From assembly GCF_001594005.1 (NCBI RefSeq), contig NZ_LTBA01000003.1, positions 57,537-89,536 of the forward strand: 32,000 nt of DNA, written 5' to 3'. This DNA is from Clostridium tepidiprofundi DSM 19306 (GTDB taxonomy: Bacteria; Bacillota; Clostridia; Clostridiales; Clostridiaceae). The notes under the pieces were generated by a model. It saw only the letters and a program-made list of their open reading frames with translations, ran no database searches and was not told the origin of the DNA. The position numbers were made by a program, and so were the translations under genes. This document shows positions 11,095 to 23,740 of this stretch, piece after piece. Numbering within the stretch: the first letter of the stretch is position 1; every line of letters begins with the position of its first letter.

Positions 11095-11290
11095 CACATA
11101 TTCCTCCCCTCCGAAAGACTTGCGAAGAGCAACAGGCAGGTCTCCTGACTCATGATTCATCCTCCTTCTACCCTTCCCAGCAAATAGCCAGTGGTATACT
11201 TAGAATTCGTCATCATTCACAGTAGCGGGGGCTGTAGTGGATTTTCACCACTTTCCCTTTTCATTCTAAAAAGAACACCTGTCACCTACT
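11095..11290 (-). promoter_or_regulatory. cobalamin (B12) riboswitch
   Basis: The minus strand reads GGGAAAGTGGTGAAAATCCACTACAGCCCCCGCTACTGT...GCCACTGG...GGGAAGG...AGTCAGGAGACCTGCC. These are the conserved core and the B12 box. A CTCTTCG/CGGAGGG helix can mask the following GGAGGGGAGG. Confidence 0.85.
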
Positions 11291-11314
11291 TTTTTAGTTT
11301 TCTTCACACACAGG

Positions 11315-13550: not shown

Positions 13551-13880
13551 AAAAAACAAACGCCTCCAAGCCAAATCTTGCTTAGAGGCGAATATACGCG
13601 TTACCACTCTAATTCTTCCCTACCTCACGATAAGGAACTCATTAAGTGACTCTCAACCTAAATAGAAAGGTCAATTTATCACTTTGCAATATAACGGTTG
13701 CAAATCCGTACTGCTCTACTACCACTTCAAACAGTATGCTCCAAGGCCATGTTCGTAAACTTCCATATCGCCAGCTTTCACCTGACCTGGCTCTCTTTAG
13801 ATACTTTCATTTACTACTCTTCTCTTCAACGCATTTACTCCACTCATACTTAACACTCATGCTTAAAGTCTTTTTATTTA
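13551..13880 (-). promoter_or_regulatory. T-box leader (Met specifier candidate) controlling metG
   Basis: The minus strand carries AGAGAG plus a GGTGAAAGC stem-I distal region and a candidate specifier AUG-G (13748-13750). It also has the T-box sequence AATTAGAGTGGTAACGCG (13597-13614). The terminator is CGCCTCTAAGCAAGATTTGGCTTGGAGGCG followed by TTTGTTTTTT. Confidence 0.85.
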
Positions 13881-21882: not shown

Positions 21883-22437
21883 CTATATTGCTTGTCTTTT
21901 TATTATTGGTATGATTTTAACACCTAATACTGCAGTCAATATGCATTTTGCTATATCTCCTGGAATAAATATTAACATTCCTATTTTAAGCGCTTTCGCT
22001 ACTGAAATACCCACTCCTGAAACATCTTTCAAAATTATATATAAATATGGAACACCTATAGCATAAATCACTACCATACCAGTTAATGACGCTATAAATA
22101 ATCTTGTAAAATTAACCACTTTAGTTGTTTCTGATATTTTGCCTATAATATAAGCACCTACTATAAATCCTATAAGATACCCAAATGATGGCGTAAACAC
22201 AGTAGAAATTCCTCCAGTTCCCCCTGCAAATATAGGTAATCCAACAAGTCCTAGAAATACATAAACCATTTGTGATAAAGCACCTAATCTTGAGCCTAAT
22301 ATCACACCAGCTAACGCTGTAAAAAGAACCTGTAATGTAATAGGTGCAGGACCTATTGGTATTTGAATAAATGCCCCCACGGCAGTTAAAGCCGCAAATA
22401 GCGATACAAGAACCATGTCTTTGGTATTGATTTTCAC
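21883..22437 (-). CDS. bioY: biotin transporter BioY (ECF S-component)
   Basis: LFAALTAVGAFIQIPIGPAPITLQVLFTALAGVILGSRLG...GGTGG is the BioY signature. GTG start lies 8 nt after AGGGGGAA. Confidence 0.85.
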   Translation of the reverse strand: MKINTKDMVLVSLFAALTAVGAFIQIPIGPAPITLQVLFTALAGVILGSRLGALSQMVYVFLGLVGLPIFAGGTGGISTVFTPSFGYLIGFIVGAYIIGKISETTKVVNFTRLFIASLTGMVVIYAIGVPYLYIILKDVSGVGISVAKALKIGMLIFIPGDIAKCILTAVLGVKIIPIIKRQAI

Positions 22438-22471
22438 GTTTAAATTCCCCCTTAATCGTAAATAAATTTAT

Positions 22472-22505
22472 ATTGTAAACCATATACGCGATTAAAGTTT
22501 ACAAT
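22472..22505. promoter_or_regulatory. BirA operator (bioO-like inverted repeat)
   Basis: ATTGTAAAC-N16-GTTTACAAT perfect 9-bp inverted repeat, 35 nt upstream of bioY. Same half-site as the E. coli bio operator (TTGTAAACC/GGTTTACAA). Confidence 0.65.
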
Positions 22506-22511
22506 ATGAAT

Positions 22512-22538
22512 ATTATAACATAAGAAAATATTTGTCAA
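22512..22538 (-). promoter_or_regulatory. candidate bioY promoter
   Basis: On the minus strand: TTGACA (22533-22538), then TGTTATAAT (extended -10, TATAAT at 22512-17) or TAATAT at 17-nt spacing. Immediately upstream of the BirA operator. Embedded in a 16-bp perfect palindrome (22520-22535/22546-22561). Confidence 0.45.
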
Positions 22539-22624
22539 TATACAAACAAATATTTTCTTATAAACAACAAACCCAAATTAAAGAACCTTAATTAGAGAAT
22601 ATTGAATAAGGAATAGAGAATAGT

Positions 22625-22915
22625 AAAAGTTGGGGCTGTCGCACTAAATAATTAGTACGTAGCTCCTTTTTTATAAGAAATTAACAGTAAGCAAAATAAG
22701 CCCTCCTTATTCGGCTTACGCCCCACCAGTTTGCTGTCTACGCTTAGCCCTTTGGGTCACCCCAAACAACTTAAGACTCGCTAATGACTGTTGGTTAAAC
22801 TTTGTCATACAGGACTCCCACCTGCTATACATCACGCCCTTTGCTTGGCGCACGGTCTGACCCCTTAGCGAGGGAGCCTGGAGGGCGGTTGCGACCGAGC
22901 TTGCTTTTCTGGTTG
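22625..22915 (-). ncRNA. candidate structured RNA of unknown class (G+C-rich 3' extension of the DUF4160/DUF2442 unit)
   Basis: No open frame on either strand. Composition jumps to 68 G+C per 120 nt (22801-22920, hand count). An 8-bp long-range helix (22777-22784/22865-22872) encloses three hairpins, and there is a GNRA-capped hairpin at 22751-22766. A terminal stem at 22632-22666 is followed by a T-run. The strand call is tentative. Confidence 0.45.
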
Positions 22916-23170
22916 CTAATTAATTTGTTTTCCTTTAGTCCATAATTCATACTCACTAATATCCGCTTCATCGTTCCAACTAATTCCATATCCTCCAACG
23001 TCAACCTTTGCCATACTGAATATTATTTTATCCTTTAATATCTCAAACTCTTCAATATTCAACCATGGTTTCATATCATATTTTTTAACAATATTGTTTT
23101 CGAAAGTTACTATCACTATATAATCTTCTTCTACTTTTACATCTTTTATTTTAGGTATTTTAATTTTCAT
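22916..23170 (-). CDS. DUF2442 domain protein
   Basis: 84 aa. IVIVTFENNIVKKYDMKPWL...GGYGISWNDEADISEYELW fits DUF2442. ATG at 23168-23170 lies 6 nt after AGGAGGTG, which overlaps the upstream stop. Confidence 0.7.
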   Translation of the reverse strand: MKIKIPKIKDVKVEEDYIVIVTFENNIVKKYDMKPWLNIEEFEILKDKIIFSMAKVDVGGYGISWNDEADISEYELWTKGKQIN

Positions 23171-23182
23171 ACAAAACACCTC

Positions 23183-23431
23183 CTACTTCAACCCATCTAA
23201 TTTTTTAAATACTTTCTTTTCCCAAATTTTCATAAGTTCATTTTGATGTAGCTCAGCCCATTCTCTTATTAATTTTACAGCTCTATTAGGCAAATCTCCT
23301 TCCGTCATTTCCAGTGTGTTTATATCAAATACTCCATTATATTCCCCATAAATAGCATGAAAATGTGGTGGTAGATGATCGTTGAAATACATTTTAATGA
23401 TTATTCCGTAAAATCTTGTTATTATTGGCAT
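23183..23431 (-). CDS. DUF4160 domain protein
   Basis: 82 aa. RFYGIIIKMYFNDHLPPHFHAIYGEY...GDLP is the DUF4160 signature. ATG at 23429-23431 lies 8 nt after GGAGG. The track's TTG start lies in the RBS. Confidence 0.75.
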   Translation of the reverse strand: MPIITRFYGIIIKMYFNDHLPPHFHAIYGEYNGVFDINTLEMTEGDLPNRAVKLIREWAELHQNELMKIWEKKVFKKLDGLK

Positions 23432-23740
23432 TCTTTTTTCCTCCAAAAACTAATCTTAATATTTTTATTTTCATGTCACCATTTCTCTCTTTACTTATTA
23501 TTATATCTTAATTTTTGTTGCATTTTCACTATCTTTTAAAAAGTATTTATATTTTTTATTAATACAAATTCTACAACAACATAAAACATCAAAAATAGGA
23601 TACCCGGTTCCAATGGAATATTGGAATCAAGCATCCATATGTGCATGAATTTTAATTAAATTACCTATCCACTTGATATGTATCAGTATATTATTCTGGT
23701 AATTAGAAAATTTTGCACCCCTGGGGTGAAGATACTAATA

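Follow-up and report, generated by a model that had tools for sequence, protein, structure and literature searches.

A G+C-rich island between DUF2442 and bioY in Clostridium tepidiprofundi is very probably a composite relic of a group II intron and an IS1182-family element

The window, by which we mean the whole 32,000-nt stretch of DNA analysed here, comes from Clostridium tepidiprofundi DSM 19306 (contig NZ_LTBA01000003.1, positions 57,537 to 89,536 of the forward strand). Within it, the minus-strand genes DUF4160 and DUF2442 are followed by a G+C-rich island and then by bioY (Table 1). A sequence-only reading of the window had described this island as a candidate structured, unclassified RNA co-oriented with the DUF4160/DUF2442 genes. 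The compositional switch next to the DUF2442 stop codon that it reported was exact, with a recount giving the same values as both hand counts (68/120 G+C at 22801-22920 and 55/120 at 22681-22800). In 200-nt windows, G+C peaked at 0.555 at 22700-22899, where the flanks lie at 0.24-0.30 and the window as a whole at 0.302. Both gene assignments were upheld, and no open frame runs through the element: the only ORFs overlapping it are chance frames of 45-59 aa, none of which spans it. The DUF2442 protein is 100% identical to CLTEP_06250 of C. tepidiprofundi DSM 19306, while the next-closest homologue in the collections searched shows 65-71% identity, and exact-protein look-ups with DUF2442 (two start codons) and BioY found the same locus in no other assembly on record. 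A second copy of the element was not present elsewhere in the 32-kb window. When the element was compared by BLAST to a phage collection there was no match, and in a plasmid collection only its bioY-proximal end, discussed below as an insertion sequence (IS) end, was matched.

Table 1. Features of the island and its neighbours in window coordinates. Intron hairpins are listed in the order in which they occur on the minus strand.
Feature	Position	Strand	Remarks
DUF4160	23183-23446	minus	
DUF2442	22916-23170	minus	
Putative 5'-exon remnant, foreign G+C-rich DNA, 62 nt	22854-22915	minus	39/62 G+C
3'-truncated group II intron, nt 1 to ~133	22721-22853	minus	Rfam, BLAST, MAFFT, covariation
Conserved domain I hairpin	22850-22846/22839-22835	minus	
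Conserved domain I hairpin	22825-22821/22813-22809	minus	
Conserved domain I hairpin	22808-22799/22791-22784	minus	
Long conserved domain I hairpin	22781-22761/22756-22733	minus	GUGA loop 22760-22757
Junction segment, 36 nt	22685-22720		Sits where intact IS copies carry the second hairpin
Solo IS1182-family terminal inverted repeat	22632-22684	plus	Tip GGGGCTGTCGCA from 22632, reading inward
Parts of the IS end	hairpin 22632-22666; T-run 22667-22672; then A/T-rich stretch	plus	
bioY	21883-22437	minus	

All six helices drawn by hand for the island are perfectly complementary, and the loop at 22757-22760 does read GUGA on the minus strand. Relative to shuffled sequences, the minimum free energy of the whole element was modestly better than chance on either strand (z = -2.63 for minus and -2.07 for plus). 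The origin of most of this structure was given by Rfam. A gathering-threshold scan of the window returned three matches in total, of which one, to RF02005 (group-II-D1D4-6), fell on the minus strand of the island at 22818-22699 with 65.2 bits against a gathering score of 49 (E 2.8e-16); RF02005 matched the minus strand only. The alignment really covers model positions 1 to ~104 of 225 and skips ~100 positions, and a forced match to the end of the model (AGGGCU) was unconvincing; the score is therefore evidence of family origin and not of a complete set of domains. A structured RNA does lie behind the G+C richness, on the minus strand as proposed. It had also been stated that a confident Rfam hit to a known family would count against novelty; with RF02005 above its gathering score, the RNA is not an unclassified one. 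The by-eye judgement that the element fits no riboswitch, RNase P, SRP, tmRNA, 6S or T-box consensus agreed with the covariance models, none of which matched in 22400-23000, where families other than RF02005 gave only sub-threshold matches to eukaryotic miRNA, lncRNA and snoRNA models (E >= 0.29).

The 5' end of the intron could be placed precisely. The 5' splice-site sequence GUGCG lies at 22853-22849 on the minus strand, which makes 22853 intron nucleotide 1; it falls in the same alignment columns as the 5' ends of 12 relatives and fits the boundary consensus GUGYG. The relatives begin with GUGCGCCCAGC.AAGGGCG, for which the window has GUGCGCCAAGCAAAGGGCG from 22853. By BLAST, identity to full-length introns was 70-77% over 22853-22731, while MAFFT and a covariance model extended the homology to GUGGGG at 22726-22721, beyond which the window diverges. 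Four of the hand-drawn hairpins (22835-22850, 22810-22824, 22785-22807 and 22751-22766) proved to be conserved domain I helices with support from covariation across the relatives, which explains why these small hairpins exceed chance. In a 13-sequence alignment, 88.1% of cells in the stub helices were paired and 18 pairs had changed on both sides; none of 500 shuffles reached this value, and controls in which the helices were slid along the alignment paired at 29-42%. The window itself retains 33 of 37 helix pairs (89%, against a family mean of 88%), so that its pairing equals that of live introns. Such well-paired helices fit a recent truncation, with selection as another possibility.

The 8-bp helix that had been taken to close a junction around three hairpins (22777-22784 with 22865-22872) behaved differently. 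About 0.6 such helices are expected by chance in 291 nt (our estimate, from ~42,000 position pairs x 4^-8), and the helix is not conserved. It pairs 5'-exon bases at 22865-22872 with the invariant intron block UUAGCGAG, which is partly used by the fourth conserved helix, and relatives with other exons have no complement for it. The supposedly complete multi-helix junction is instead the first ~133 nt of an intron of ~1.9 kb. We therefore consider it exceedingly improbable that the island is a new structured RNA built around that junction, whether it stood alone as an sRNA or served the DUF4160/DUF2442 transcript as a 3' UTR element. The G+C island and its hairpins are real, and the modestly stable minus-strand fold would suit such an RNA, but the hairpins belong to group II domain I under a confident RF02005 match, the junction-closing helix, which relatives do not have, joins exon to conserved intron sequence, the 3' stem belongs to an IS repeat (see below), nothing similar lies beside other DUF2442 pairs, and the window has no other copy.

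Full-length relatives of the stub were collected with a pattern made from the two most conserved blocks, which returned 20 viral-contig loci; a search of viral contigs with the 16-mer GGGGTCAGACCGTGCG mostly yielded unrelated G+C-rich coding DNA. RF02005 was found in 9 of 9 relatives scanned, at 114-171 bits, and RF00029 (domains V/VI) in 7 of the 9 as well, ~1.8 kb downstream at 48-60 bits. In the sole relative checked for coding capacity (L002), the intron codes for a protein of 433 aa that has RVT_1 and GIIM domains and finds LtrA as its best match in the PDB (8e-43); the protein alone does not decide among the bacterial classes IIA, IIB and IIC for these relatives. The stub shares with introns of this RF02005 subgroup (IMG/VR L002, L012 and L006; Blautia/Ruminococcus L026-L031) the GUGCG end, the four 5' domain I hairpins, the invariant blocks AGCGAGUCUU and AAGCGUAGACAG, and 70-77% nucleotide identity over the first ~120 nt. 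In contrast to these, it has neither the part of domain I that binds the exon nor domains II-VI, and no gene for the 433-aa reverse transcriptase/maturase.

Each of these absences was searched for. RF00029 had no match at E<=10 in 22400-23000 and none at E<=0.1 across the window, and tblastn of the 32-kb window with the proteins of two relatives gave nothing below E = 2.5. The exon-binding sites of group II introns reside in distal domain I, and homology in the window stops at intron nt ~133, before the distal domain I that can be aligned in the relatives. With catalytic domain V and branch-point domain VI gone, along with domains II-IV, the remainder of domain I and the reverse-transcriptase/maturase gene, the stub can neither splice nor move. 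That it is nonetheless an active reduced intron, acting in cis as an ORF-less mini intron or as the 5' half of a split intron assembling in trans, is extremely unlikely. Its GUGCG 5' splice site and exon motif are intact and its retained helices undecayed, and engineered Ll.LtrB fragments split within domain I do work (PMC3410883). However, only ~133 of about 600 ribozyme nucleotides are left, domains V/VI are absent from the 32 kb, IS-derived sequence comes right after the break, and the 62-nt non-coding exon scrap that follows the DUF2442 stop codon leaves nothing to splice together. To the particular form in which the remainder, from distal domain I to domain VI, is encoded elsewhere in the genome as part of a natural split intron, we assign a probability close to nil; were it true, the GUGCG junction and the undecayed helices would have been kept by selection rather than by youth.

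A truncated group II intron is our reading of 22721-22853. Incomplete target-primed reverse transcription leaves 3' fragments; since the stub is a 5' fragment, this process cannot explain it. Fragments of group II introns occur commonly in bacterial genomes and may represent either end, with IS insertions and rearrangements among the causes (PMC2504315). Like the fragmented bacterial introns of the Dai and Zimmerly compilation, as far as that is relayed in PMC2504315, and like RmInt1-type remnants (PMC4181065), the stub is partial, non-functional and intergenic, and it sits beside other mobile DNA, plausibly as a product of IS-associated rearrangement; unlike those fragments, it is a 5' piece truncated at its 3' side.

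A second, independent 3'-truncated 5' stub of the same intron family was observed in a Lachnospiraceae metagenome-assembled genome (MAG; L032, 6096-6217; RF02005 49.0 bits). Its homology stops directly behind AAGCGUAGACAG, at a point no more than ~15 nt from the breakpoint in the window, and it lies 19 nt downstream of a transposase ORF with an rve domain. That the two break so close together could be a coincidence, or the stretch behind the long domain I hairpin could be fragile or a target. In both L006 (8664-8686) and L032 (6073-6095), an L006-type intron follows the same 23 nt (TTGACCACAxTGGGGTCAGACC), and in both contigs the intron lies just downstream of a transposase-like ORF, which suggests that the natural home of the L006-type lineage is the end of an insertion sequence.

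Upstream of the intron, the 62 nt that reach the DUF2442 stop codon are read as a putative scrap of the foreign DNA that housed it. The last 11 of these nucleotides, 22864-22854, are GGGGTCAGACC and are identical to the 5'-exon motif of the L006-type intron, an identity first noticed in an alignment of relatives picked regardless of their exons. The 11-mer lies immediately before GUGCG in L006, as it does in 7 Lachnospiraceae loci (Blautia, Ruminococcus and Eubacterium MAGs), the latter being all that a scan of genome contigs with the junction pattern returned. Upstream flanks of the seven loci are unrelated, apart from a semi-conserved CACATT ahead of the motif; a shared motif within differing flanks is the behaviour of an intron target site. 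The other 51 nt (22865-22915) had no match in the collections searched. A 24-mer from it was found zero times in metagenome contigs and a 23-mer zero times in viral contigs, BLAST against all 159 fetched loci returned only chance 12-13-mers, and there was no similarity to the IS repeat. The piece is unstructured (z = +0.76), and translation in six frames shows only a possible ORF tail of 16 codons, which stops 11 nt short of the intron and is too short to identify.

The bioY-proximal part of the island is of a different origin. The imperfect stem at 22632-22666, which had been counted as the terminal part of the RNA, is the terminal inverted repeat of an IS1182-family element, as shown by three lines of evidence. 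First, the 53 nt at 22684-22632 show 85% identity to each of the two IS1182-family copies on pTW9. The plasmids matched are Enterococcus faecalis plasmids, and in pTW9, which we inspected, the match adjoins a gene annotated as an IS1182-family transposase with DUF772 and DDE_Tnp_1_6 domains; each of its two copies is bounded by inverted GGGGCTGTCGCA. Second, the first 25 nt of the repeat match 25/25 in at least 120 metagenomic loci, and since the sequence outside the tip differs in every one of them, the tip must mark where a mobile element ends. Third, a covariance model of IS ends, constructed on 21 intact ends that did not include the one in the window, matched the window only at 22632-22705 (49.2 bits, E 2.6e-10; next match 16 bits). 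IS1182-family members such as IS1272 have terminal repeats that form stem-loops (PMC5678879). The same 3' hairpin had also been considered as intron domain V, as it shows AGC and a 2-nt bulge on paper; it has no RF00029 match and is the IS repeat.

Compared to the pTW9 copies, the first 25 nt of the tip are identical, and the order of hairpin, T-run and A-rich stretch is that of the transposase-proximal end of intact copies. The end in the window is solitary, however, and is without a second repeat, the second hairpin with its TGGTAAAAT box, or the DDE transposase. In a search of the window for a terminal repeat with <= 3 mismatches allowed there was a single match, and tblastn of the 32-kb window for an IS1182 transposase gave nothing below E = 2.3. 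With one end and no transposase, the remnant cannot transpose. Intact transposase-proximal ends in the metagenomic loci (L040-L159) consist of a stem-loop, a T-run, an A-run, a second hairpin, TGGTAAAAT and ATG, and the arms of the second hairpin co-vary between subfamilies. The first hairpin resembles a terminator and may protect the transposase gene against transcription entering from outside.

Between the IS end and the intron stub, the junction segment forms a 13-bp hairpin of its own at 22687-22719 (-14.2 kcal/mol, z = -2.65). The TAAGCC/GGCTTA stem drawn by hand is present as the inner part of this hairpin. A few BLAST alignments of the IS end extend to 22703, and the IS-end covariance model, used to ask whether the IS part runs on through 22719 as the second hairpin, reaches 22705 but skips the positions of that hairpin. 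The origin of the junction segment is uncertain.

The presence of a genuine IS end raised the alternative that the whole island is a MITE-like, internally deleted IS1182 derivative with two repeats, an intron as cargo and the capacity to be mobilised in trans. On the DUF2442 side, GCTCGGTCGCA at 22900-22890 does loosely resemble the tip GGGGCTGTCGCA, but in local alignments the left 64 nt were no more similar to five IS ends than shuffled sequences were (p = 0.07-0.9). With no second repeat within 3 mismatches and no other copy in the window, and with the left piece unmatched among the loci fetched by the IS-end motif, several of which span complete ISs, we regard this derivative as very unlikely.

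We conclude that the island is very probably a composite relic of two mobile elements with no activity of its own. The feature noted by the sequence-only reading is real and was correctly observed; it consists of non-functional fragments of two known families and is not novel. The ribozyme and the IS terminal stem-loop are the source of its G+C richness and its hairpins. Read on the minus strand from the DUF2442 stop codon, the proposed composite would run from an exon scrap through intron nt 1-~133 and a ~36-nt junction hairpin to an IS end of at least 53 nt. A group II intron would have retrohomed into the 11-nt target motif in foreign DNA, and this DNA, with the intron and a nearby IS, would then have been inserted between DUF2442 and bioY. 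Since its tip faces away from the intron, the IS cannot have reached this arrangement by simply inserting into the intron, and at least one deletion from intron domain I into the IS would be needed. We place one endpoint in domain I and the other probably ~55-90 nt inside the IS end; everything between the two would have been removed. The IS tip at 22632 adjoins host DNA a short way upstream of the bioY promoter.

The present effect of the relic would be passive, as a structured 3' tail should the DUF4160-DUF2442 transcript read through. A further step would be that the relic has been exapted, as a 3'-end stabiliser or terminator for that transcript or as an insulator before the bioY promoter. 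This is unlikely on balance, though passive use as a 3' stabiliser or terminator is alone among the rival readings in having appreciable probability. The island sits exactly between the DUF2442 stop codon and the bioY promoter, and the IS hairpin folds stably on either strand (-15.0 and -15.7 kcal/mol) and is followed by T6 on the plus strand and by AACUUUU on the minus strand. Against this, a terminator scan of both strands of 22600-22920 called none, the T-run is not on the strand that the DUF operon would need, the element is missing beside other DUF2442 pairs, and a single available genome leaves no conservation to weigh. The island shows no association with DUF4160/DUF2442 pairs: in three genomic contexts, 0 of 5 homologous loci have the element downstream. 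Downstream of these five closest loci there was no Rfam group II match, BLAST similarity or comparable G+C island.

The biological weight of the composite relic is small, as it is ordinary mobile-element debris. It would record that a Clostridium of hydrothermal vents once took up foreign DNA into its chromosome, between DUF2442 and bioY, and has since deleted nearly all of it. Relatives of the intron are found in gut Lachnospiraceae and their phages, and an IS1182-type element would have come too. The practical lesson is the larger one: taking G+C-rich non-coding islands in A+T-rich genomes as signs of novel structured RNAs also catches ribozyme and IS debris, and the first screen of any such island should be for matches to the Rfam group II models and for IS terminal repeats. 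Annotation is due for 22721-22853 as a group II intron fragment and for 22632-22684 as an IS1182-family end.

Several other observations were made in and around the locus. First, the closest metagenomic DUF4160/DUF2442 pairs (L033 1187-1693 and L034 1137-1643) lie among toxin-antitoxin genes (PIN/PhdYeFM, ParE-like), which hints that the pair is part of an accessory, TA-like gene pool. Second, a bioY promoter is predicted on the minus strand, with TTGACA at 22538-22533, a 17-nt spacer and TAATAT at 22515-22510. A perfect palindrome with 16-nt arms (22561-22546/22535-22520) overlaps its -35 element, and a second palindrome, TTGTAAAC-N16-GTTTACAA at 22504-22473, lies between the -10 element and the bioY start codon. 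Both are candidate repressor operators, and the second resembles biotin-repressor (BirA) sites. Lastly, a cobalamin riboswitch (11118-11297, 122.7 bits) and a T-box leader (13581-13838, 114.7 bits) were identified by Rfam on the minus strand of the window.
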